A DNA stretch of 64,000 nt from Parcubacteria bacterium C7867-006 (GTDB lineage: Bacteria > Patescibacteriota > Minisyncoccia > Phycocordibacterales > DATDWN01). The first letter of the stretch is position 1; each line of letters opens with the position of its first letter. Shown piece after piece: positions 1 to 39,805 of this stretch. Under the pieces are notes generated by a model. The model had not been told where the DNA came from. It was given only the letters and a program-made list of their open reading frames with translations, and did not search any database. Made by a program: the position numbers and the translations under genes. The stretch covers positions 133,618-197,617 of the forward strand of contig LFCP01000004.1 of the NCBI GenBank assembly GCA_001189155.1, given 5' to 3'.

Positions 1-1550
1 CTGTTCCAATGAATGGAAGCATTTTCTTTGCGATATTCCAAACCTTCATGTGTGGTCCAAACGAGACACCTTATTACGGTGATTATCCATCAGATTATTT
101 TGACTTTATTATTATAGATGAATGCCATCGTGGCGGTGCGAATGATGAATCTAACTGGCGTGGCATATTGGAGTATTTTTCTTCTGCCGTTCAACTAGGT
201 CTTACTGCTACCCCAAAAAGAAAAGACAATGTCGATACATACAAATATTTCGGTGATCCAGTTTATATTTACTCCCTGAAGGAAGGTATAAATGACGGGT
301 TCCTAACTCCTTTTAAAGTAAAAAGAGTTCAAACAACTCTAGATGAGTATATCTATACTTCAGATGATGAGATTGTTGAGGGCGAAGTTGAAGAAGGAAA
401 AATATATAAAGAGGACGACTTTGCTAGAGGAAATATAAAAATAATTGAAAGAGAGGAGTATAGGGTTAAGATTTTTTTGAAAGAAATAAACCAGAATGAA
501 AAAACTATCGTATTTTGTGCTACACAAGGTCATGCCTTGCTAGTTCGGGATTTGATAAATAGAAACAAAGAAAGTAAAGATACAAACTATTGCGTGCGGG
601 TTACAGCAAACGACGGTTTTCTTGGTGAACAATATCTTCGTGAGTTTCAAGATAACGAAAAGACTATTCCAACTATTCTAACCACTTCTCAAAAACTTTC
701 TACTGGTGTTGATGCTAGAAATATAAGGAATATTGTTTTGATGCGCCCCGTAAATTCAATGATTGAATTTAAACAGATCATAGGTCGTGGGACTCGTCTT
801 TTTGATGGTAAAGAGTATTTCACTATTATTGATTTTGTTGATGCCTATAAGAACTTTCTTGATCCTGAATGGGATGGTGAGCCAATTGATAAAACAACAG
901 AGCAAGGACCAATAGAACCTCCAGGACCTAGAGGACCAAGAGTTCCACCTCCTTTACCACCAGAGCCAATACAGAAACTCAAGATAAAATTGCGAGATGG
1001 TAAAGAAAGAGAAATTCAACACATGGTTAGAACATCTTTTTGGAGTGCAGATGGAAAACCAATTTCTGCTGAAGAATTTTTGCAAAACATGTTCGGAGTG
1101 TTACCTGAATTTTTTAAAGATGAGAAAGAACTTAGAGTAATTTGGTCAAATCCTCAAACAAGAAAAGTATTTCTCGATAAACTTGGAGAAATGGGTTTTG
1201 GCAAGGAACAATTAGAATCTGTACAAAAAATAATTAATGCTGAAAACAGTGACCTTTTTGATGTTCTTGGATATATCGCTTTCGCATTGCAACCAATTAC
1301 TCGCCTAGAAAGAATCCAAAATACTAAGTATGATATTTTTGATGGTTTAGACATTAAGCATAGAGAATTCATTGAGTTCGTACTTGCTAAATACCAAGAA
1401 AGAGGTGTTGAGGAGCTGGATGAGGAGAAATTACCTCAACTATTAAAGCTAAAGTATGACGCTATTTCTGATGCCGAGAAAAACTTGGGGAGCGTGGACA
1501 AAATACGGACAGCATTCTTCGATTTTCAAAAGTTACTTTATTCAAAATAA
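1..1550 (+). CDS. hsdR: Type I restriction enzyme R-subunit-like SF2 helicase, C-terminal part (5' end lies outside the window)
   Basis: The frame is open from the window edge. Helicase motif II is IIIDECHRG and motif III is LGLTATPKR; later motifs are TTSQKLSTGVDA and QIIGRGTR. A Pro-rich linker is followed by a tail (SDLFDVLGYIAFA..TRLER) that resembles the EcoEI-type R-subunit C-terminal domain. Confidence 0.75.
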   Translation, partial: VPMNGSIFFAIFQTFMCGPNETPYYGDYPSDYFDFIIIDECHRGGANDESNWRGILEYFSSAVQLGLTATPKRKDNVDTYKYFGDPVYIYSLKEGINDGFLTPFKVKRVQTTLDEYIYTSDDEIVEGEVEEGKIYKEDDFARGNIKIIEREEYRVKIFLKEINQNEKTIVFCATQGHALLVRDLINRNKESKDTNYCVRVTANDGFLGEQYLREFQDNEKTIPTILTTSQKLSTGVDARNIRNIVLMRPVNSMIEFKQIIGRGTRLFDGKEYFTIIDFVDAYKNFLDPEWDGEPIDKTTEQGPIEPPGPRGPRVPPPLPPEPIQKLKIKLRDGKEREIQHMVRTSFWSADGKPISAEEFLQNMFGVLPEFFKDEKELRVIWSNPQTRKVFLDKLGEMGFGKEQLESVQKIINAENSDLFDVLGYIAFALQPITRLERIQNTKYDIFDGLDIKHREFIEFVLAKYQERGVEELDEEKLPQLLKLKYDAISDAEKNLGSVDKIRTAFFDFQKLLYSK

Positions 1551-1562
1551 TTTATTATTTTT

Positions 1563-2504
1563 ATGACACTATTTAAAAATCAAAATGAAAAGATCAGTAT
1601 AGTTAAGGATATGCCTTTTTCTTTGGAAAAAGACCTTCAAAAACTTACGGAAAAAAATATCAGGGAGATATTCGGATTAGAATTTGTTTCAAGTGAGTTT
1701 CAGCATAATGATTTAAGAATAGATACGTTAGCTTTTGATAGAAACCTAAACACTTTTGTTGTTCTTGAGTATAAAAGAGAAAAGAGTTTTAGTGTTATAG
1801 ATCAGGGATTTGCCTATCTATCGCTAATACTAAACAATCAAGCTGAATTTGTCTTGGAATTTAATAAAAAATTTGAAGAAAAAAGAGGAAAGGCAGATTT
1901 TGATTGGTCACAAATGAGGGTACTATTTCTAACAAGATCGTTCACCCCGCATCAATTAGAGGCAATAAATTTTAAAGACCTACCTATTGAGCTTTGGGAA
2001 GTTACAAGATATGAAGGAGATTTAATTCAGTACTCTCAAGTCAAAAAATCTGGTGCAAAAGCTTCTATTGAAAGTTTAGGTATAAATAATAATGATGTCA
2101 AAAAAGTTTCTAGAGAAGTAAAAACCTATTCTGAAGAGGATTATTTAAATAGTAAACCTGACGGTGTTGGTAAAAAGATATTTGAGTTATTGAAAGAAAA
2201 AGTATTAGTTATAGATTCAAGTATAGTCATGAACCCAACAAAAAGTTATATTTCATTCCAATTGCCTAATAACTGGAGAAATATTTTTTACTGTCATGTG
2301 TATGGAAGTAAGTTAAAAATTGATTTCACTAGATCAGAGCCAAAAGATTTTAATGATCCTGAAAAGAAAGTGTTTTACAATGAAAACAGTGTTAAACACT
2401 ATAATCAGCATATATCATATATAGAAATAGATAACGAGAAAGGTTTGGATTATGGGTTGTATATAATACAGCAAGCATATGACAAGTTTATGAAAGAAAA
2501 TTAA
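1563..2504 (+). CDS. Hypothetical protein with an N-terminal NucS/DUF91-like PD-(D/E)XK nuclease motif and a DUF5655-like C-terminal half
   Basis: 313-aa ORF starting 12 nt after the R-subunit stop. RIDTLAFD...FVVLEYKREKS fits a D..E-x-K nuclease core. The C-terminal family assignment is from recollection only. Confidence 0.45.
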   Translation: MTLFKNQNEKISIVKDMPFSLEKDLQKLTEKNIREIFGLEFVSSEFQHNDLRIDTLAFDRNLNTFVVLEYKREKSFSVIDQGFAYLSLILNNQAEFVLEFNKKFEEKRGKADFDWSQMRVLFLTRSFTPHQLEAINFKDLPIELWEVTRYEGDLIQYSQVKKSGAKASIESLGINNNDVKKVSREVKTYSEEDYLNSKPDGVGKKIFELLKEKVLVIDSSIVMNPTKSYISFQLPNNWRNIFYCHVYGSKLKIDFTRSEPKDFNDPEKKVFYNENSVKHYNQHISYIEIDNEKGLDYGLYIIQQAYDKFMKEN

Positions 2505-2509
2505 AACTT

Positions 2510-3190
2510 ATGAAAACATTATATTTCGATATTGAAACATTGCCAGCAGATGAATCTTCATATAACAAGTTAAAATATCTTTTTGATAAAAAGAAAGAAA
2601 AGAAGTCTAAAGTCAAAAAGATAGAAGATGAGGAGATTGTTGATTCTAGTTCAAAAAGTCTTGATGATTTTATCAATAAAACAGGTTTAGATGGTGCGTT
2701 TGGTAGAGTTCTTTGTATTGCCTATGCTATTGATGATGGAGAGTTACAAGTTTTGTGTAATGACGGAAACGAAAAGAAAACCATAGAGGAATTCTGGGAT
2801 GTAGCAAAAGATTGTGATTTATTTGTTGGTCACAACATTATGTCTTTTGATTTTAAATTTATAATGCAACGATCTATTGTTTTAGGAGTCAAACCAACTT
2901 GGCAGACTCGAGAAATGAGATCTCCAAAGTATCTATCATTTGCAAGATATAGAAATAATCCAATATTCGACACTATGTGTGAGTGGGTTGCTTGGGGTGA
3001 GAATAAAAACTCATCACTAGAGCATGTTGCTCTAGCATTGGGAATTCCAACACCTAAAGATGGAGTTGATGGTTCAAAAGTAGCTGAGGTTTATAAAGAA
3101 GAAGGAGGTATTCAAAAAATTTGTGACTATTGTAAAAGAGATGTTGGTACTACTCGAGCTGTATACAAAAGAATGACTTTTGAAAATTAA
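2510..3190 (+). CDS. DEDD-type 3'-5' exonuclease, RNase H-like fold (PolB-exonuclease-like)
   Basis: Exo I is YFDIETLP, Exo II is GHNIMSFDFKF and Exo III is YCKRDV. The gene starts 5 nt after the upstream gene. Confidence 0.65.
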   Translation: MKTLYFDIETLPADESSYNKLKYLFDKKKEKKSKVKKIEDEEIVDSSSKSLDDFINKTGLDGAFGRVLCIAYAIDDGELQVLCNDGNEKKTIEEFWDVAKDCDLFVGHNIMSFDFKFIMQRSIVLGVKPTWQTREMRSPKYLSFARYRNNPIFDTMCEWVAWGENKNSSLEHVALALGIPTPKDGVDGSKVAEVYKEEGGIQKICDYCKRDVGTTRAVYKRMTFEN

Positions 3191-3236
3191 TTTAAGCCTA
3201 AAAATTTTCTATACTTTTCAAAATACTAGACCTACA

Positions 3237-3607
3237 AAAAACTGACGAGGAATTGCCTAGACACTAGTTTGTAGAATCTACAATCACAGCATCCCAAGCA
3301 ATTTGCTTGACACGAGATGCAGAATTTATAGCACCTTGCTTAGAAACATAAGCTTCTGAAGCAGCAACTTTTTCGCCGTTTCCAGCAACTAGTCGCCATC
3401 GGTAATAACCTGCCGTGTCTTTGTAAATAACAAATATTGTTTTGTTCATACAGTTTAATCTTGTTAACTCTAATAATGTTTAGGGACCGACCAGCGTAGA
3501 GCGCTCCCCGAATAAAAACCGAAATATTCAGTTTCTATTCGGGAGGTCTAGTGGCAGTGTGATCTAAACAAAAGAGAGGGGTCCAAGGTATATCCTCGTC
3601 AGTTTTT
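3237..3607. repeat. 15-bp perfect inverted repeat pair (3237-3251 aaaaactgacgagga; 3593-3607 tcctcgtcagttttt) bracketing the YegP-like gene and its leader
   Basis: The two arms are exact reverse complements, read directly from the sequence. Confidence 0.8.
3264..3449 (-). CDS. YegP/DUF1508 family small protein
   Basis: 61 aa. YYRWRLVAGNGEKVAASEAYVSKQGAINSASRVK matches the DUF1508 repeat pattern. Confidence 0.7.
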   Translation of the reverse strand: MNKTIFVIYKDTAGYYRWRLVAGNGEKVAASEAYVSKQGAINSASRVKQIAWDAVIVDSTN

Positions 3608-3700
3608 CAAAGGCCTGTTTTGATAGAATTTTACACCTTCCCTTTTATGGTGTCTACTGTGATCCGGACGGGGGGTAAAGTGTGAACTACTTGTTATTTT
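3470..3700 (-). other. Locally G+C-enriched structured non-coding region upstream of the YegP-like gene (candidate leader or ncRNA, unidentified)
   Basis: No ORF is present. Hairpin CTCCCCGAATA...TATTCGGGAG is enclosed by GGACC...GGTCC, and there is an ACACC...GGTGT hairpin. I could not find RNase P, SRP or tmRNA signature motifs. Confidence 0.25.
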
Positions 3701-3715
3701 TGTTAATATGGTCAC

Positions 3716-4357
3716 ATGAATACAATCTGGCTAGACAAAGTTTCTGAAAATATTTTCCCTTTGAGTTTGGAGCAAAAAGATATCAAGAAGGCTCTTACAG
3801 AATGGATATATGAAGGTAATTTTTACGATCTAGAAACTCCCTCAGAACTGTGTCAGCTTTGTAATCATCCTGACATTCGATATCAGTTTGAAATTCGAAA
3901 TAAAAATACCAGCAGTACTTTATTAATTGGTTCAGAATGTGTAACTAGATTTGGCGGTATTGTTGTGGTTGATGGGCAAGGAAATACAGTGGAAATAAAA
4001 GAAGCTAAGAAAAGAGTAGCAAAAGATAAAAACAAACTTATAAGAGATGCTGAAACAAAAAGTGTCATCAATACTCTTGTTACTTTAGGATCCTACGACC
4101 ACGAGTTCGACATCTCAAACTTTTTAAAATATTACCAAGAAAGAATGGCTTTCACACCTAATCAATTATCAACTATTCTTTGGAGAATAGAGAAGCATAA
4201 AGTTTACTTCAATAAGTCTCATTTTAAATTAACAATAAAAAGAGAGAGGGAGAAACAACAGCTTTTGAATATGGAAGATTGGAAACTAAAAAAGCTATTT
4301 CCTTGTCTATCGTCATCTCAAAAGAAATTCATTCAAGACGCTACTAATAATAAATAG
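3716..4357 (+). CDS. Hypothetical protein with a Cys-x2-Cys ... Cys putative zinc-binding motif
   Basis: 213-aa ORF containing CQLCNHPDIRYQFE...IGSECV. No family recognised. Confidence 0.45.
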   Translation: MNTIWLDKVSENIFPLSLEQKDIKKALTEWIYEGNFYDLETPSELCQLCNHPDIRYQFEIRNKNTSSTLLIGSECVTRFGGIVVVDGQGNTVEIKEAKKRVAKDKNKLIRDAETKSVINTLVTLGSYDHEFDISNFLKYYQERMAFTPNQLSTILWRIEKHKVYFNKSHFKLTIKREREKQQLLNMEDWKLKKLFPCLSSSQKKFIQDATNNK

Positions 4358-4398: not shown

Positions 4399-5085
4399 AT
4401 GAAGCTGGTTATAACTGATCATCTAAAGCAACTAGAAGAAAAAAGGACTTCTATCCCTGAAGATGTTTTTGATGTCACTAGGTTTTCTTTAGAAGAACTA
4501 CTGAGCACATTTGAGTCGATGGATACTTTGATTAAGAAAACTGACTACGAAGGTTGCATTAAGTTATCTAGGTCCATACTCGAAAATTCTGTAAACCTTA
4601 GATATATCTACAAAGAGGATACCGAAAAACGTGCTAAAAACTTTAAATTGAAATCAGTAAAGGAACTCTCAAGAAAGTTTGATTCTTTGGAAGAACGTAC
4701 ACCTGAGGCAAAAGAGATGAATGACTACTTTCAGGAGCTTCTTAAGGATTACACGCCTGAGAAAAATATACGTGAAAAATTCAAAGCCGTTAATTCTGAC
4801 GCTACATACATAAGATCATATAGGCGACTTTCGGAATTCATTCACCCTGCATATCGCCCAAAGAAAATAGATTTTAATGAAAACAGACCGTATGTTCTGG
4901 AAATGAAAAGAACTGTTAGATCAGATACATGCATTGTGGCTCTAATGGCTCTAGAAGTGGTTTGTCTTAAATATGACTTGGATGGAGGAATCGTTATGGT
5001 TGATGAACCGGGCTACATAGGAAAGGTATTTTTTGCCACAAACCCAAAGAAAGCATCGGAGGATGTAAAAGACCTTAAATTCTAG
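4399..5085 (+). CDS. Hypothetical helical protein
   Basis: The ORF track starts at GTG 4360. ATG 4399 (MKLVITD) is the more conservative start. No family recognised. Confidence 0.45.
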   Translation: MKLVITDHLKQLEEKRTSIPEDVFDVTRFSLEELLSTFESMDTLIKKTDYEGCIKLSRSILENSVNLRYIYKEDTEKRAKNFKLKSVKELSRKFDSLEERTPEAKEMNDYFQELLKDYTPEKNIREKFKAVNSDATYIRSYRRLSEFIHPAYRPKKIDFNENRPYVLEMKRTVRSDTCIVALMALEVVCLKYDLDGGIVMVDEPGYIGKVFFATNPKKASEDVKDLKF

Positions 5086-5234
5086 ATACCCAAAGTAGTG
5101 TCGCATTTGTCGCTTTTGACCTATTCCGAAGAGGGTCAAAATGATAAGATAAAAGTAATCAAAAAAGCCTTGTGGGGCTTGATGGGTAAATATACGAGAC
5201 CGAGGAGGCCAGCCCTGAAAGCAATATTGATAAC

Positions 5235-6804: not shown

Positions 6805-7188
6805 CTACGTGAGAAGGCGCAAGAGCTTCCTCAAACCATCGCGAAACCTCCTGCGAGTCATCCGGTCGACCGAGGTGAGTTCCTCGGGAAGTATCGTTCC
6901 GCTCACCCTCGACGAAAACGAAAAACCATGAATCCCCAGGAACCGTTCAACAGCAATGATCACTGAACGACGACACGAGCCAAGGAGTGGGTAGACCTCG
7001 ATGATCATCTTCACCTCATCCTTGGTCAGACCCTTTGCGACTCGGTAGGGACTGAAGAACATGTGAAGCACTCCAGCCTCCTTCTTGGAGAGCCGATAGC
7101 GCTTCCTGTAGCGATCCAGAACACCGTCTTGCGCGTTCCGGAGTCTTGCTTCCGAAAATTTCTTCAACTTGATCACTCGCTCCTCCAT
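6805..7188 (-). CDS. GC-rich ORFan (second gene of a two-gene cassette)
   Basis: 127 aa. Its ATG lies 1 nt after the TAG of the upstream ORF (translational coupling). The composition is far more G+C-rich than the flanks. No family recognised. Confidence 0.55.
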   Translation of the reverse strand: MEERVIKLKKFSEARLRNAQDGVLDRYRKRYRLSKKEAGVLHMFFSPYRVAKGLTKDEVKMIIEVYPLLGSCRRSVIIAVERFLGIHGFSFSSRVSGTILPEELTSVDRMTRRRFRDGLRKLLRLLT

Positions 7189-27955: not shown

Positions 27956-27956
27956 T

Positions 27957-27988
27957 AAAAACAACCTCATAAAGAGGTTGTTTTTATT
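27957..27988 (+). terminator. AAAAACAACCTC-ATAAA-GAGGTTGTTTTT hairpin after murA
   Basis: 12-bp stem plus a T-run. Confidence 0.75.
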
Positions 27989-28109
27989 TGGTGCCGGAGG
28001 AGGGACTCGAGTCTTACAGACTCAGTACTCCAATTGGATATTTTTTCAAAATATCTCAATCGGGTTTCGAGTCCTCACGAAAGTCAAAACATGACTTTCT
28101 CTCCGGCAT
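27989..28109 (-). ncRNA. tRNA-Leu-linked tRNA-like element, copy Z (complete: 5' acceptor strand, H1, split T-arm P1, P2, P3, 3' acceptor strand and CCA)
   Basis: It starts with GCCGGAG, identical to the tRNA-Leu(CAA) acceptor, and ends with TCGAGTCCCTCCTCCGGCACCA; 18 nt of that end are identical to the tRNA 3' end. It does not fold as a cloverleaf and has no D or anticodon arm. It is homologous to copies X and Y, with compensatory stem changes. Confidence 0.4.
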
Positions 28110-28137
28110 GCAAAAATCCCCTTTCGGGGATTTGTTG

Positions 28138-28219
28138 TGCCGGAGGAGGGACTCGAACCCTCACGCCTTGCGACACACGATTTTGAGTCGTGCGCGTATA
28201 CCAATTCCGCCACTCCGGC
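28138..28219 (-). tRNA. tRNA-Leu (anticodon CAA)
   Basis: Cloverleaf: acceptor GCCGGAG/CTCCGGC, anticodon loop CTCAAAA, long variable arm, T-loop TTCGAGT. Followed by a terminator hairpin ATCCCC-GAAA-GGGGAT with a T-run. Confidence 0.9.
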
Positions 28220-28298
28220 ATAAAACCAATATAACATATTTTAATATAAAGTTCAGGGCCGACAAACACTAGCGCTTGTCGGACCCTGACTGCAGTCA

Positions 28299-28814
28299 TT
28301 ACCCCTTCTTCAGAACTAATCTTGGCAAATTCTGAGTAATGGGTAGAGACACAAGTGTCTTTGCTTTGTACAACCTGAAAGCTTCTTGGCGATTGCCATC
28401 AAGAAGATTCGAGATCCTTATGCCGAGTCTCGAAACAGCCTGAGGTTTCGCTTGGGTGGTCGAAGGATAGCACAGAAAGGTAGCATCGTCGTGCACAGGC
28501 TCTGCTCCATATCCAAGTGTACGCAAAGCAGTGCACAAACAGAATGCAAGCCTCTCAGCCCTAGCAAACACAGGGCTAGTTGCGTATCCAATTGGATGAA
28601 TTTCGTTCGCGAGCCAGACGATGCTGAAGTCATCTTTCAGCTTACCGTCAACCTTTCTCTTTGAGGCAACTTGCGCTGCGTTGAAGACCTTCTTCTCGAG
28701 CTTAAAATTCAGCTGGAGAGATGGTTGAAGTCGAAGCTTGTGCCACTCCTTCACTCCCACTTCAACAAACTTGTTCCATTCATCGCTACCAACTGCTCGC
28801 ACCCAGTATTTCAT
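28299..28814 (-). CDS. GC-rich ORFan cassette
   Basis: 171 aa. AAGGAG lies 8 nt before the ATG and the GC hairpin GGGCCGACAA..TTGTCGGaCCC lies after the stop. Wedged between tRNA-Leu(CAA) and miaA. Confidence 0.55.
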   Translation of the reverse strand: MKYWVRAVGSDEWNKFVEVGVKEWHKLRLQPSLQLNFKLEKKVFNAAQVASKRKVDGKLKDDFSIVWLANEIHPIGYATSPVFARAERLAFCLCTALRTLGYGAEPVHDDATFLCYPSTTQAKPQAVSRLGIRISNLLDGNRQEAFRLYKAKTLVSLPITQNLPRLVLKKG

Positions 28815-28868
28815 TTCGCAATCTCCTTGCCGAAATAACCTGTCCGTTGTACAGTTTGTCTTATTAAA

Positions 28869-30313: not shown

Positions 30314-30363
30314 AGTTTTAATAAATTACCAGAAAAGAGACTAAAATGCAAGGTTTATAAAGT

Positions 30364-30398
30364 AAAAAGCCGTCCGAGTAAAAGTAACCTCGGACAGG
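30364..30398 (-). terminator. CCGTCCGAG-N10-CTCGGAC(A)GG hairpin with a T-run on the minus strand
   Basis: Located 22 nt after the stop of ORF 30420-30626. Confidence 0.6.
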
Positions 30399-30419
30399 CC
30401 TTTCACTCTTGGACAGACT

Positions 30420-30626
30420 TCAGAATTCGAAGATTGGACGCGGGATGAGGATCTGCTCTGTTCCAGCGACCCTCATAGAGATGTGCTTTTCACCACCACA
30501 GTGTCGAAAGACGACAACACCGCGAGTGTTGTCTGGGTCGTTCTGCACATAAACGACAGTGCAGTTGTTGACCTTGTCACCAACTTGAAGCGAGCTCCAC
30601 TGATCGCTGGACATCTCGTTAGACAT
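30420..30626 (-). CDS. GC-rich ORFan cassette
   Basis: The start is set at ATG 30626 (MSNEMSSDQW) with GGAGG 5 nt upstream. The promoter is TTGACT-N17-TAACAT. 68 aa, no family recognised. Confidence 0.5.
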   Translation of the reverse strand: MSNEMSSDQWSSLQVGDKVNNCTVVYVQNDPDNTRGVVVFRHCGGEKHISMRVAGTEQILIPRPIFEF

Positions 30627-30710
30627 CGCGGCCTCCAAAATTGTTCCAACTATTATGTTAGTTCTAAAAAAGTTACTAGTCAACAAAAATCCCCTTGCGG
30701 GGAATCTTTG

Positions 30711-30793
30711 TGCGTAGGGAGGGATTCGAACCCCCGTAGGCCGAAGCCGAGAGATTTACAGTCTCTTGTAATTGACCACTCTACCACCTACGC
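30711..30793 (-). tRNA. tRNA-Tyr (anticodon GTA), class II with a long variable arm
   Basis: Anticodon arm AGAGA-CTGTAAA-TCTCT and T-loop TTCGAAT. A terminator hairpin ATTCCCC-GCAA-GGGGAT follows. Confidence 0.9.
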
Positions 30794-31165
30794 AATCTTA
30801 TATTTAACGTATTTACTAGTCTCGATACTTATTTCATTTCTTGATTCTACTTCAGCCCATGGCAAATCATACATTTGCCCTTTTTGAGTAAAAATAAATA
30901 ACCTATCAAATGAATTTTTATCGTATTTCTTGGAATAACTGAAAGATTGATTTCCCCCTGTTATTCTGAGACCGACTTTACAGGTTTTGCTATTACTATA
31001 AAGTCCTGCGTATTTTACTTGAACTTTGGACAAAAGTCCATTTTTTTCAATTATCAAATCATAATCTCTTTTATCACCAATAGGCAAACACACTTCATAA
31101 CCAGAAGTTATATAATGTCTTATAGCATTACCAACTGCTATATCTCCTTTACTTTTGGTATTCAC
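30788..31165 (-). CDS. Stand-alone PD-(D/E)XK endonuclease of the group-I-intron-associated type
   Basis: KGDIAVGNAIRHYITSGYEVCLPIGDKRDYDLII...KVQVK. Its last two codons overlap the 5' end of tRNA-Tyr. Confidence 0.6.
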   Translation of the reverse strand: MNTKSKGDIAVGNAIRHYITSGYEVCLPIGDKRDYDLIIEKNGLLSKVQVKYAGLYSNSKTCKVGLRITGGNQSFSYSKKYDKNSFDRLFIFTQKGQMYDLPWAEVESRNEISIETSKYVKYKIA

Positions 31166-38549: not shown

Positions 38550-38634
38550 GCCCGGATGGCGGAACTGGTATACGCGCACGACTTAAAATCGTGTCTCGAA
38601 AGGGATGTGGGTTCGATTCCCACTCTGGGCACCA
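38550..38634 (+). tRNA. tRNA-Leu (anticodon TAA), CCA encoded
   Basis: Acceptor GCCCGGA/TCTGGGC, anticodon loop CTTAAAA and a long variable arm. Confidence 0.9.
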
Positions 38635-38654: not shown

Positions 38655-38775
38655 GAGTGGGAATCGAACAGATTTCCGGTTTACAAATTCAATAGAATTT
38701 GTCGGAAATTTGCGTTTTTAATTTTATTGAGTGGCGACGAAATAAAATTAAAAAAGATTACCCCACTCTGGGCAC
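38655..38775 (+). repeat. Split copy of the tRNA-Leu(TAA) T-arm and 3' end (element W): GAGTGGGAATCGAA-[two hairpins]-GATTACCCCACTCTGGGCAC
   Basis: Its ends reproduce GTGGG TTCGATT CCCAC TCTGGGCA of the adjacent tRNA. The interior holds the hairpins GATTTCCGG..CCGGAAATT-like and TTTTTAATTTTATT/AATAAAATTAAAAA. Confidence 0.5.
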
Positions 38776-38811
38776 AATAAAACTCCGTAAGGAGTTTTAT
38801 TGTGCCCAGAG
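38766..38811. repeat. 21-bp perfect inverted repeat CTCTGGGCACAATAAAACTCC-GTAA-GGAGTTTTATTGTGCCCAGAG
   Basis: It joins the 3' acceptor-like end of W, a terminator core, and the 5' acceptor-like start of X. Confidence 0.85.
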
Positions 38812-38929
38812 AGTAAAGCTATGTTATAATTTTACGTTTGGAATCGAAGCCCGATTGAGATTTTTTATGATTTTAAGAAACAAAAAATCCAATTAGGGTA
38901 CTGATCCTGTAAGGATCGAATACCCAAAC
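38802..38929 (+). ncRNA. tRNA-Leu-linked tRNA-like element, copy X (lacks a 3' acceptor strand)
   Basis: GCCCAGAG start, H1 GTAAA..TTTAC, P1 GTTTGG/CCAAAC, TCGAAGCC, P2 GATTTTTT/AAAAAATC, GTACTGA, and P3 GATCC-TGTAA-GGATC (38903-38917). Confidence 0.4.
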
Positions 38930-38933
38930 TTTG

Positions 38934-39084: not shown

Positions 39085-39165
39085 GGGCAAGTGGCGGAAT
39101 TGGTATACGCGCTAGTCTTAGGAACTAGTTCCTCACGGATTGGGAGTTCGAGTCTCCCCTTGCCC
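39085..39165 (+). tRNA. tRNA-Leu (anticodon TAG)
   Basis: Acceptor GGGCAAG/CTTGCCC and anticodon loop CTTAGGA. A terminator AAACACC-GAAA-GGTGTTT follows. Confidence 0.9.
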
Positions 39166-39199
39166 ACAAACAACAAACACCGAAAGGTGTTTTTGTTTT

Positions 39200-39328
39200 G
39201 GGACAAGGAGAAAAGTCTGGGAGACTTTTCGTGGAGACTCGAAGCCTGTTTGAGATATTTTGGGAGTTATGAAATTACGAACAAAAATATCCAAACATGG
39301 GTACTGATCCTGTAAGGATCGAGTCTCT
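39200..39328 (+). ncRNA. tRNA-Leu-linked tRNA-like element, copy Y
   Basis: GGGACAAGG start, H1 AAAAGTC-TGGGA-GACTTTT, P1 GGAGAC/GTCTC, TCGAAGCC, P2 GATATTTT/AAAATATC, GTACTGA, and P3 GATCC-TGTAA-GGATC (39306-39320). Confidence 0.4.
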
Positions 39329-39375
39329 AATGAAAATTTTGAGTCGCGGACGAGTCTCCTAAAAATGGAACTCAT

Positions 39376-39444
39376 GTACAGAAACTGTAAGTTTCGAGAT
39401 TCTCCCCTTGCTAATTATTCCTGACCGAGTCTCCCCTTACCCCC
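39376..39444 (+). repeat. Partial second element (P3 GAAAC-TGTAA-GTTTC plus a tRNA-3'-end-like CGAGATTCTCCCCTTGCTA) and a third tRNA-3'-end-like copy (CCGAGTCTCCCCTTACCCC)
   Basis: Compare with the tRNA-Leu(TAG) 3' end TCGAGTCTCCCCTTGCCCA. Confidence 0.55.
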
Positions 39445-39448
39445 CCAC

Positions 39449-39477
39449 TTGACAGATACCACATAATGTATTACTGT
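39449..39477 (+). promoter_or_regulatory. TTGACA-N17-TACTGT promoter-like sequence for the GC-rich ORF 39495
   Basis: It starts 5 nt after the last tRNA-3'-end-like copy. Confidence 0.4.
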
Positions 39478-39494
39478 ACAACGCAGGAGCACCT

Positions 39495-39707
39495 ATGACA
39501 CACAACGAGATTGTCACTCTGATGAGGAGCAGTCGCTCTCCAGAGGAGTGGAAAAGCAATGAGGAGAGAGTGAAAGCTCACTTCTCTGGAAGTCTACCCT
39601 CTTTCTGGTACGGACTGATCGTTCAGTCCGAGGTGGCCAAGAAAACAAAAGCTTCATGGCCAAAACCACGACCCACACAACCCAAACGGCCGAGCCTGTG
39701 CCGCTGA
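39495..39707 (+). CDS. GC-rich ORFan cassette
   Basis: 70 aa. AGGAG lies 6 nt before the ATG, and a GC hairpin plus T-run lies after the stop. Confidence 0.5.
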   Translation: MTHNEIVTLMRSSRSPEEWKSNEERVKAHFSGSLPSFWYGLIVQSEVAKKTKASWPKPRPTQPKRPSLCR

Positions 39708-39805
39708 CACACCGAGCCGCCGAGTTCCGAGAGGAACCCGGCGCTTTCTTATTTTTTTGAATAAACAAAAACCACTTGTAAAAGTGGTTTTTGTTTATTC
39801 AACTA

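Follow-up and report, generated by a model that had tools for sequence, protein, structure and literature searches.

Just downstream of many tRNA genes in the tiny-genome Patescibacteria sits a folded element of roughly 130 bases, which carries a forward and a backward copy of that tRNA's own tail around a conserved core; no described RNA family or mobile element that could be found matches it. The element was recognized in a 64,000-nucleotide stretch of Parcubacteria bacterium C7867-006 (GCA_001189155.1, contig LFCP01000004.1, hereafter the window), where three units, Z (27989-28108, minus), X (38802-38932) and Y (39200-39327), are homologous, fold far better than shuffled sequence, are not called as tRNAs and match no Rfam 15 family. 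The observation on which the original prediction rested, a family of structured units behind the tRNA-Leu genes of the window, is confirmed. Its interpretation is only partly supported: a conserved, structured element family with compensated stems and conserved junctions is real, but the link to tRNA-Leu, the reading of the 5' strands and the reading of one fragment, W, required correction.

Structured units behind the three tRNA-Leu genes

ARAGORN and Rfam call nine tRNAs in the window, among them three tRNA-Leu genes, and neither tool calls the units; no tRNA hit falls on Z, X, Y or W even at E up to 10. The motif GTACWGA-NNN-TGTAA-NNN-TCGA occurs 4 times in the window, against 0.08 expected from shuffles, and only behind the three tRNA-Leu genes. 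Z, Y and X align at 75% column identity; Z folds at -53.9 kcal/mol (z = -9.5), Y at z = -4.7 and X at z = -2.9. A covariance model built from 119 family members and run unfiltered over the whole window finds only Z (76 bits), X (91 bits), Y (85 bits) and a fragment, Y2 (24 bits), and nothing at the other six tRNAs. Every stem sequence tabulated in the original prediction was checked in the sequence and is correct. The features are as follows (loci other than the window carry L-numbers; L002 is a close relative).

28137..28219 (-), tRNA-Leu(CAA), called by ARAGORN and by the Rfam tRNA model (61.1 bits); its 3' end from C56 onward is copy 1 of the repeated segment.
28112..28133 (-), terminator-like hairpin AAATCCCC-GAAA-GGGGATTTTT, which with the tRNA acceptor 3' strand and the 5' arm forms one long interrupted palindrome.
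28101..28108 (-), Z 5' arm, TGCCGGAG, the reverse complement of the tRNA 3' end CTCCGGCA, including the discriminator.
28080..28098 (-), Z hairpin H1 (AAAGTC-ATGTTTT-GACTTT), flanked by AG and CGT; in the family, 114 of 121 units have a hairpin of at least 6 bp here, with 93 distinct stem sequences.
28066..28076 (-), Z P1 5' strand, GAGGAC-TCGAA, the reverse complement of the T-stem 3' strand plus T-loop 54-60, with one G missing; it co-varies with the target T-loop (TTGAA for TTCAA, TCGGA for TCCGA).
28030..28064 (-), Z P2, a long hairpin with a conserved bulged internal loop (UUGAG/UCCAA) and a variable tip; 12 of 14 pairs show changes on both sides.
28024..28029 (-), Z junction J2/3, AGUACU; in the family this is (G)GUACU, and UAC.G stays conserved even in divergent copies.
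28009..28023 (-), Z P3, GAGTC-TGTAA-GACTC; the inner 3 bp are hypervariable but always paired, and L002 has GATAC/GTATC.
27989..28009 (-), Z 3' arm, a direct copy (copy 2) of the tRNA from C56 to A73 (18 nt; the repeat runs 20 nt counted from the core's own TCGA), followed by CCA.
27957..27985 (-), second terminator hairpin, behind Z and convergent with murA.
38550..38634 (+), tRNA-Leu(TAA), called by ARAGORN and Rfam.
38655..38776 (+), W, a decayed type-2 unit (z = -6.0) with a P1 5' strand GAGTGGGAATCGAA, two hairpins, the loop motif GAGTGGCGACGAA and a 3' arm CCCCACTCTGGGCACA; it is homologous to L005 and to type-2 cores.
38766..38811 (+), a 21-bp perfect hairpin joining W's 3' arm to X's antisense 5' arm (loop GTAA).
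38802..38932 (+), X, a type-1 unit (model hit at 38835-38930, 91.4 bits); the 5' arm GTGCCCAGAG is present, the P1 stem has drifted with compensation (GTTTGG/CCAAAC), and the acceptor 3' arm is lost, abutting tRNA-Lys.
39085..39167 (+), tRNA-Leu(TAG), called by ARAGORN and Rfam.
39200..39327 (+), Y, a type-1 unit with a degenerate 5' arm and a 3' arm cut off after GTCTC (model hit at 39230-39333, 85 bits).
39341..39359 (+), remnant resembling the 3' end of the W/L026/L129-like core variant plus arm (GAGTCGCGGA-CGAGTCTCC).
39376..39411 (+), Y2, a type-1 fragment with J2/3, P3 GAAAC/GTTTC and an older 3' arm (model hit, 24.3 bits, E = 3e-4).
39420..39442 (+), remnant of a type-2 3' end (CCTGACC) plus the oldest 3' arm (GAGTCTCCCCTTACCC).

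The 5' strands had been read as copies of the acceptor and T-stem of the tRNA, so that the unit would be a tRNA-Leu acceptor and T-arm with a split T-loop. This is only half right: the 5' half is an antisense copy of the 3' half, not the tRNA's own 5' strands. It is the reverse complement of the tRNA gene's 3' end, from T54 through T-loop positions 54-60 and the discriminator to 1-3 trailer bases; in Z, TGCCGGAG stands against CTCCGGCA, and GAGG-ACTCGAA against TTCGAGTCCCTC. By contrast, the 3' arm is a direct copy that starts at C56. The CCA behind it is a peculiarity of Z, found in 4 of 39 exact-copy arms. Similarly, W had been taken for a split T-arm fragment but is a decayed copy of a second core type.

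Covariation, target-derived arms and signs of turnover across the family

A pattern scan of one genome per species returned at least 118 loci, against about 0.1-2 chance hits calculated, and all real hits are in Patescibacteria (Parcubacteria/Paceibacteria). Of 122 matches, 119 have a complementary P3, and only these were kept in the alignment, in which P2 and P3 covary strongly: 96.3% of cells are paired against 78% in shuffles, doubly changed cells number 349 against 88, 15 of 21 pairs show double changes, and the covariation score is 0.433 against 0.105, with 0 of 500 shuffles as high and slid controls reaching at most 0.095. Because the sequences were ascertained by an exact pattern, the invariance of TCGAA, TACTGA, TGTAA and TCGA in this alignment is imposed, and only the roughly 24 divergent copies speak to conservation. 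G-U pairs far outnumber A-C; at one P2 pair there are 43 G-U, 43 G-C and 1 A-C, which points to the tRNA strand as the functional one. A second, unrelated covarying core (type 2), with the central pair complementary in 19 of 20, sits in the same slot.

The units are not specific to tRNA-Leu, a link that is local to the window. They follow more than 30 tRNA species, at a median of 73 nt behind the tRNA on the same strand; in 85 units lying less than 140 nt behind a tRNA, the tRNA is Leu, Ser, Arg, Pro, His, Val, Gly, Gln, Met, Lys, Tyr, Asn, Asp, Ile, Cys or Glu. The 3' arm matches the tRNA from the T-loop to the gene's end for 19-23 nt, and for 46-49 nt in L002, L024 and L035, and the arm boundaries follow T-loop variants. 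Where the 3' arm differs from the tRNA, the antisense strand matches the tRNA at 33 of 37 positions; thus, the 5' half tracks the live tRNA rather than the unit's own 3' arm.

Presence and type differ between close relatives at the same tRNA: type 1 is found in the window and L002, type 2 in L005, and none in L003, L140 and L143. Window Y has a different P2 from its counterpart in L082 but nearly the same core as L090, whose arm belongs to a different tRNA-type sequence. Cores within one genome at different tRNAs reach 0.87-0.96 identity, against a between-genome median of 0.76. Chimeric units occur in L071 and L099, and tandem arrays, as in L024 and the window Y region, show a more diverged distal arm. 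No insertion event with a clean empty site in a near-identical genome was found; at tRNA-Leu-CAA, relatives at 88-90% MurA identity have the tRNA inverted or a LAGLIDADG gene in that place.

A proposed modular T-loop insertion and its rivals

The best, though still tentative, reading is that the units are copies of a protein-less, RNA-structured, modular insertion element that lives at the T-loop position of tRNA genes in Patescibacteria and supplies a replacement tRNA 3' end; the suggestion in the original prediction of a small mobile insertion in T-loops fits the wider data better than a stable RNA gene does. The anatomy is taken as shown by the data, whereas the mechanism, including any catalysis, is inferred, and transcription of the units is inferred from promoter and terminator geometry only. 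One element runs from C56 of the tRNA gene to the last base of a conserved core and contains, in order, a replacement copy of the tRNA 3' end (copy 1, now part of the working gene); a trailer, often a terminator-like hairpin; an antisense arm complementary to positions 54-76 plus trailer, interrupted by H1; and a compact three-way-junction core, which in type 1 is P2, GUACU, then P3 with loop UGUAA, and in type 2 is unrelated in sequence. The displaced original 3' end lies directly behind the core as the 3' arm (copy 2) and decays with time.

In this view, the element would spread by break-and-repair or recombination at the T-loop DNA (GGTTCGANTCC), which is conserved in nearly all tRNA genes, using the tRNA sequence itself as homology. 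Because it brings its own tRNA tail, the gene would stay intact and remain a target, which would explain tandem arrays and nested remnants. The core, H1 and the arms would be selected as RNA on the tRNA strand, probably because the element is transcribed as part of the tRNA 3' trailer; that RNA would have either to fold into an inert tRNA-like domain that keeps the antisense arm away from the tRNA, or to take part in its own processing or insertion. Free-standing homing-endonuclease-like genes abutting tRNA genes in the same genomes are candidates for making the break. Several points weigh against this reading. No transposase, integrase or reverse transcriptase is associated with the units, and no circular or free form is known; gene conversion within the palindrome, by which the antisense arm might become matched to each new tRNA, is only a guess; 42 of 85 units lie behind a terminator-like hairpin; the strong purifying selection on core sequence and fold is not required by a purely DNA-level parasite; and some unit-tRNA pairs sit in a tRNA cluster conserved across genera (tRNA-Arg, tRNA-Gly, yraN, tRNA-Pro), which could mean long vertical retention, and hence a host function.

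Alternatively, each unit may be a host-serving non-coding RNA, a mimic of the acceptor/T-arm made from the tRNA's 3' trailer and kept matched to its tRNA, which might act as a decoy or sponge for proteins or nucleases that recognize the acceptor/T-arm stack, as a processing signal for RNase P, RNase Z or the CCA-adding enzyme, or as an antisense regulator of its own tRNA. This is possible but less likely. The RNA-type covariation, the conserved junctions, the predicted coaxial acceptor-like plus T-like helix with a side hairpin, the compensated drift of P1 in X, the retention in a conserved tRNA cluster and the antisense arm matched to the live tRNA favor it, and co-transcription is plausible for the 43 of 85 units without a terminator between tRNA and unit. 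However, the distribution is patchy (3 of 9 tRNAs in the window, with presence, absence and type swapping between close relatives), many copies are truncated, chimeric or tandem, the 3' arm that a mimic would need is the part that decays, the discriminator is paired and CCA is rare, and two unrelated cores are interchangeable. A ribozyme-bearing, intron-like element of the T-loop is doubtful. In a read-through transcript, the tRNA 5' strands would pair with the distal arm and the proximal tRNA tail with the antisense arm, making the whole element an insertion between U55 and C56, and the core would cleave, splice or exchange strands at the two identical U|CGA junctions. The minimum-energy fold of tRNA-Leu-CAA plus Z (-109.3 kcal/mol, z = -9.8) is exactly this nested giant T-loop, using the distal arm, which in Z carries CCA, and both junctions meet at one multi-helix junction with P2 and P3; the core is compact, with near-invariant junction bases and a GNRA-like loop, as in small ribozymes, the two unrelated cores in one context recall how different self-cleaving ribozyme classes substitute for one another, and Patescibacteria keep self-splicing introns in tRNA genes (PMC13011429). 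Yet this rests on thermodynamic prediction only, no known ribozyme family matches at E up to 10, a 75-nt core is far smaller than any known self-splicing intron, the proximal tRNA tail makes splicing unnecessary, and half of the units lie behind a terminator.

Least likely, the units are scars or right ends (attR) of classical integrase-borne islands that target tRNA genes, with the core as island-end DNA bound by recombination proteins; an integrase crossover scar had also been raised in the original prediction. The tRNA 3' segment is indeed directly repeated, as at attL and attR, defense-gene islands lie between the tRNA and the unit in L081 (Shedu SduA), L099 (Abi_C plus HTH) and L071 (SMODS/AGS_C plus methyltransferase), and a tyrosine integrase is present in L137. 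But about 85 of 123 units lie within 140 nt of the tRNA with no cargo and no ORF in between, the L137 integrase island, the only one seen, sits upstream of a separate partial tRNA copy and is an independent insertion, and in L081 the island lies upstream of complete tandem units. No inverted integrase core sites flank the crossover, and RNA-type covariation with G-U pairs is not expected for protein-binding duplex DNA. A scan of 2.9 million viral contigs for the exact type-1 and type-2 patterns gave only chance hits, without P3 pairing or a tRNA and in coding context. A bolder possibility, also doubtful, is a protein-free, RNA-programmed mobile unit: its transcript would carry a sense and an antisense copy of the same 21-nt tRNA segment and could pair with both strands of a tRNA gene or with the tail of a tRNA transcript, and the three-way-junction core, of which at least two unrelated kinds exist, would be a new ribozyme that cuts and rejoins at U55|C56, in effect a T-loop mini-intron or RNA recombinase carrying its own replacement exon.

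Patescibacteria have some of the smallest bacterial genomes, yet many of their tRNA genes carry 130-300 bases of this material, conserved in fold across several candidate phyla, so something maintains it. If the unit is a mobile element, it would be a new way of parasitizing the most conserved 11 bases in biology, the T-loop coding sequence, without harming the host gene and without encoding a protein. If the cores are catalytic or guide RNAs, they would be new small ribozyme or RNA-guided classes with arms naturally reprogrammed to over 30 different targets. The units, their fragments and the tRNA-tail copies confuse tRNA and island annotation in thousands of metagenome-assembled genomes, which a covariance model would clean up.

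Relation to described systems and neighboring genes

Full-text literature searches found no description of the units. Rfam 15, searched at gathering and permissive thresholds on the window, both unit regions, a clean type-2 unit and 18 related loci, returned nothing except tRNAs and one unrelated LOOT RNA, save for sub-threshold matches. Integrative elements of the T-loop sublocation class (reportedly described by Williams, 2002, Nucleic Acids Res.) likewise insert at or in the T-loop, supply a replacement tRNA 3' end so that the gene survives and leave the old 3' end downstream as a direct repeat, with tRNA genes acting as hot spots with nested remnants. The present units are only about 130-170 bp, lack integrase and cargo, contain an inverted copy of the target and a covarying three-way-junction core, serve many tRNA species with near-identical cores and are absent from the viral contigs scanned. 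Like MITEs, they are multi-copy and patchy between relatives, with near-identical copies at different sites, but their inverted repeat is target-specific rather than element-specific and the duplicated length varies from 19 to 49 nt. Non-autonomous IS200/IS605 derivatives and their TnpB/IscB guide (omega) RNAs, in which a structured right-end scaffold is followed by a flank-derived guide, are also small, strand-specific, hairpin-rich and protein-less, with a conserved RNA scaffold directly followed by about 20 nt of target-derived sequence next to a short conserved target motif. In the units, however, the "guide" is sequestered by an antisense arm and the target is duplicated; no tnpA, tnpB or iscB family appeared among the largest ORF clusters, or among the ORFs put through Pfam, out of 892 ORFs from the genome-contig loci, and HEARO and other Rfam models do not match.

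The tRNA mimics (the tmRNA tRNA-like domain, viral tRNA-like structures, bacterial YrlA, mascRNA) share an acceptor-like helix stacked on a T-like helix and, with Z, a 3' CCA. In the units the T-loop is replaced by P2 and P3, the discriminator is paired with the antisense-derived 5' arm and the helix sequence changes with the neighboring tRNA; YrlA scores 14 bits, far below threshold, and mascRNA hits only the true tRNA. The nearest paper concerns group I introns in Patescibacteria tRNA genes (PMC13011429), selfish structured RNAs of the same phylum that live in tRNA genes without killing them. Those introns sit in the anticodon loop (35/36 and other sites), exceed 200 nt and are detected by Rfam models, whereas the units lie behind an intact, uninterrupted gene and have a core of about 75 nt; the only intron hit is a chance-level group-II-D1D4-3 match (13.4 bits, E = 5.5), and none reaches gathering thresholds in 18 loci. 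Searches for small self-cleaving ribozymes (hammerhead, twister, twister-sister, pistol, hatchet, HDV-like, hairpin) gave no hits at E up to 10 on type 1 or up to 5 on type 2, and a hammerhead reading of the CUGA and GAA junctions was rejected because they lie on the wrong junction strands. sRNAs derived from tRNA 3' external transcribed spacers, such as 3'ETS-leuZ of E. coli, share the position in the 3' trailer and possible release by tRNA processing, but are short, unstructured sponges specific to one operon, in contrast to this multi-copy, modular, highly structured family with target-copied arms.

The idea that the distal arm keeps an ancestral encoded CCA which the proximal copy lacks was rejected, since CCA is rarely encoded anywhere in these genomes. 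The variable P3 stem is not copied from the T-stem 5' strand of the target, with which it shows no correlation, and pairing of P3 with the H1 loop was also rejected. Genes for a YraN-like nuclease and for the CCA-adding enzyme are enriched near units; conserved synteny of a tRNA cluster explains the YraN case. A 220-aa HTH protein shows only the HTH domain in Pfam, NCBIfam and PDB sequence searches. Nuclease-like ORFs abut tRNA 5' ends, with a PF11645 ORF in the window, HNH in L082 and HTH proteins in 9 loci, and a LAGLIDADG ORF occupies the murA-downstream slot of L139, where no tRNA was found in the sequence examined.

Units behind the tRNA-Leu genes and across Patescibacteria

ARAGORN and Rfam find nine tRNAs in the window, and the three tRNA-Leu genes lie where the original prediction placed them. 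Behind each of them, on the same strand, lies a homologous unit:

27989-28108, minus strand: unit Z
38802-38932: unit X
39200-39327: unit Y

The motif GTACWGA-NNN-TGTAA-NNN-TCGA occurs four times, against 0.08 expected, and only at these places. Z is predicted to fold at -53.9 kcal/mol (z = -9.5) into exactly the helices originally drawn. Neither ARAGORN nor Rfam calls any unit as a tRNA, and no Rfam 15 family matches, even at E = 10. A covariance model of the family, run unfiltered over the window, finds only Z, X, Y and a fragment, Y2, and nothing at the six other tRNAs. The observation behind the original prediction is therefore confirmed.

MurA places the window in Patescibacteria, in the Parcubacteria/Zambryskibacteria-like group. 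The window MurA (443 aa) lacks the N-terminal HTH_3/HTH_19 domain that is fused to MurA (about 503 aa) in many relatives, among them homologues P0012, P0019, P0020 and P0025. A relative with 92% MurA identity (locus L002) has the same unit behind tRNA-Leu-CAA, with its P3 hairpin reading GATAC/GTATC instead of GAGTC/GACTC, whereas an 82% relative (L005) has a different core in the same scaffold and an 86% relative (L003) has none. Among relatives with 88-92% MurA identity, the slot between murA and miaA (window 27956-28300) is rearranged: in L140 (1740-1920) and L143 (2750-2920), tRNA-Leu-CAA is inverted and has no unit, and in L139 (2833-3414) a LAGLIDADG endonuclease gene sits there instead, with no tRNA found in the sequence examined.

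An exact-pattern scan of one genome per species returned at least 118 loci, against about 0.1-2 chance hits calculated for that pattern, with several genomes contributing three or four loci. All real hits are Patescibacteria MAGs, i.e., Taylor-, Lloyd-, Zambryski-, Nomura-, Kaiser- and Ryanbacteria, and Paceibacterota; the one outsider, a gammaproteobacterium, lacks P3 pairing.

Covarying cores and tRNA-derived arms

In a 119-sequence core alignment, RNAalifold recovers the two core hairpins, P2 and P3, and 15 of 21 pairs show changes on both sides. The main alignment was ascertained by pattern and retains only rows with a paired P3 (119 of 122).

Pairing and covariation in the core alignment compared with shuffled or slid controls
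Measure: observed; control
Cells paired: 96.3%; 78.0%
Doubly changed cells: 349; 88
Covariation score: 0.433; 0.105 (0 of 500 shuffles as high)
Score with partners slid: no observed value; at most 0.095

One P2 pair is G-U in 43 sequences and G-C in 43, but A-C in only 1, which points to the tRNA strand as the selected one. H1, the hairpin on the 5' side of the unit, is present with at least 6 bp in 114 of 121 units, with 93 different stem sequences. In about 24 divergent copies, found by the model rather than by the pattern, AA after UCG, UAC.G in the P2-P3 junction and GUAA in the P3 loop remain more than 90% conserved. By contrast, the inner three pairs of P3 (in the window, within 28009-28023, 38903-38917 and 39306-39320) change about eight times faster per site than the rest of the core in otherwise near-identical copies (0.41 against 0.053 differences per site), always differing on both strands and always staying paired. 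Fifteen stem variants were seen, with NNC/GNN predominating; these pairs are not derived from the target and do not correlate with H1.

Across the family, the unit follows tRNAs of more than 30 species, not just Leu, at a median of 73 nt behind the gene on the same strand. The 3' arm after the core is a direct copy of that tRNA from the T-loop to the end of the gene, typically exact for 19-23 nt, and for 46-49 nt where units are tandem. The 5' strands are the reverse complement of the same segment, including T-loop bases, the discriminator and up to a few trailer bases, e.g., tGTGCCTGGG against CCCAGGCACa, and GCGGGAATCGAA against TTCGATTCCCGC. Unusual T-loops make the boundaries visible: for TTCAAGT, the 5' side reads ACTTGAA and the 3' side starts at CAAGT, and for TCCGATT, the 5' side reads AATCGGA. 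The inverted copy therefore spans 54-76 and beyond, while the direct copy starts at C56; the base at '55' belongs to the core, because it co-varies with its P3 partner. The spacer between the tRNA and the unit is often a perfect palindrome centred on a terminator-like loop and extending through the acceptor strand of the tRNA and the antisense arm, as in loci L048, L095 and L103 and at window 38766-38811. Most tRNA genes in loci L021-L138 do not encode CCA: the discriminator is typically followed by CA(A/G), in genes with and without units, and about 15% encode CCA.

Among tRNAs with a downstream repeat of their own tail but no match to the core of Z, X and Y (type 1), many carry another core (type 2). 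Its layout is GAAAG-GNC-GGAG, a hairpin, GAG-GMC-GGGGTCG, a hairpin (often with a GAGCGACGGCGAA loop), then GTGACC, followed by C56 of the arm. N and M are complementary in 19 of 20 cases, with all four Watson-Crick pairs represented. This core sits in the same arm scaffold, with H1 present in most copies. W, a decayed unit behind tRNA-Leu-TAA in the window, and the L005 unit belong to a related variant of this second core class. Two remnants lie in the trailer of tRNA-Leu-TAG:

39341-39359: remnant resembling the 3' end of the W/L005 variant
39420-39442: remnant of a type-2 3' end

This trailer thus holds pieces of at least four successive units.

Signs of turnover and genomic neighbourhood

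Presence and type of the unit differ at the same tRNA between close relatives. Window Y has a different P2 from its counterpart in locus L082, but differs at only 4 positions from the core in L090, whose arm belongs to a different tRNA-type sequence. Cores at different tRNAs within one genome are more alike than random pairs between genomes, with medians of 0.81 and 0.76, and several within-genome pairs reach 0.87-0.96. Chimeric units, with the antisense arm of one tRNA and the 3' arm of another, occur in L071 and L099, and in tandem arrays the distal arm is the diverged one (L024). Where the 3' arm differs from the tRNA, the antisense strand agrees with the tRNA at 33 of 37 positions. The antisense arm therefore tracks the working tRNA tail, and the distal arm is the decaying relic, as expected if the element comprises the proximal tRNA tail (copy 1) through the core, and the 3' arm (copy 2) is the displaced original end.

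The units do not appear to be phage att sites: neither core occurs in 2.9 million viral contigs beyond chance hits. Nor are they generally island ends, as most units have no cargo. Defence-gene islands do lie between the tRNA and its units in three loci, and a tyrosine integrase is present in a fourth:

L081, 561-2796: Shedu SduA
L099, 1982-3082: Abi_C plus HTH
L071, 2996-6469: LexA-like C5 methyltransferase with SMODS/AGS_C and a 187-aa partner
L137, reverse strand, 1077-4069: tyrosine integrase

However, the L137 island lies upstream of a separate partial tRNA copy, and the L081 island lies upstream of complete tandem units; they look like independent insertions into the same hot spot. L137, a Patescibacteria contig, also carries a LOOT RNA at 6959-7075 on the plus strand (Rfam RF03000, 74 bits), which is unrelated to the units.

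No associated protein family emerges from 892 neighbouring ORFs, apart from synteny of a tRNA cluster. In this conserved gene order, which recurs across several candidate phyla (L032, L058, L105, L106, L112, L117, L125, L130 and L138), tRNA-Arg(tcg) is followed by an HTH ORF, tRNA-Gly(gcc), yraN (UPF0102 nuclease) and tRNA-Pro(tgg), with units present or absent behind each tRNA.

Possible nature and mechanism

These elements form a real, widespread family of tRNA-tail-copying structured elements with at least two core types, for which no description was found in Rfam 15 or in the literature searched. The interpretation originally offered is only partly supported, since the proposed link to tRNA-Leu and the reading of the unit as a split tRNA need correcting. 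The anatomy, covariation, tRNA-wide distribution, turnover and decay asymmetry come directly from the sequence comparisons, whereas mobility and its route, transcription of the units and any activity of their RNA are inferred. The most likely nature, put forward tentatively, is a protein-less insertion module with an RNA-selected core. In this view, insertion would occur at the T-loop with a replacement tail, and the module would spread by break repair or recombination using tRNA homology, although how the antisense arm is re-matched to a new tRNA is unexplained; the intact T-loop would remain targetable, which would explain arrays.

The RNA-level selection may reflect the need to keep the antisense arm from unfolding the tRNA in putative read-through transcripts, or may instead reflect an active role; 43 of 85 units have no terminator in front. 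A host-serving tRNA-trailer RNA, a less likely possibility, and a ribozyme or intron-like element, which is doubtful, remain open. In the predicted fold of tRNA-Leu-CAA plus Z, the tRNA 5' strands pair with the distal arm, which carries the CCA, the proximal tail pairs with the antisense arm through the terminator hairpin, and both U|CGA junctions then meet P2 and P3 at one junction. That is the geometry of a T-loop intron, but it is only a prediction.

Nuclease-like ORFs that abut tRNA 5' ends could supply breaks, and a LAGLIDADG gene occupies the murA-downstream slot in L139. In the window, a 125-aa ORF at 30788-31165 (minus strand) belongs to Pfam family PF11645 (PD-(D/E)XK endonuclease, E = 5e-22), the family of the tRNA-intron homing endonuclease I-Ssp6803I, and ends inside the first bases of tRNA-Tyr (30710-30793, minus strand). 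In nine loci (L026, L058, L062, L104, L106, L117, L123, L125 and L126), a roughly 220-aa protein with an N-terminal HTH and an unrecognised C-terminal part ends at or inside the 5' end of a tRNA-Gly, -Arg, -Met or -Ala gene on the same strand, e.g., L026 1906-2538 against tRNA-Arg 2529-2603. In L082, an HNH endonuclease ORF (about 4592-5100) runs into tRNA-Leu(TAA) in the same way. The ORFs in these nine loci and in L082 look like free-standing homing-endonuclease-type genes parked at tRNA 5' ends.

Three patches of 47-50% G+C, in a genome of about 33% G+C, each lie next to a tRNA gene in the window and hold small ORFs with no Pfam or NCBIfam match:

28250-28850: patch with a 171-aa ORF at 28299-28814, minus strand
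30350-30700: patch with a 68-aa ORF at 30420-30626, minus strand
39350-39800: patch with a 70-aa ORF at 39495-39707, plus strand

These patches are probably foreign DNA at tRNA hot spots.
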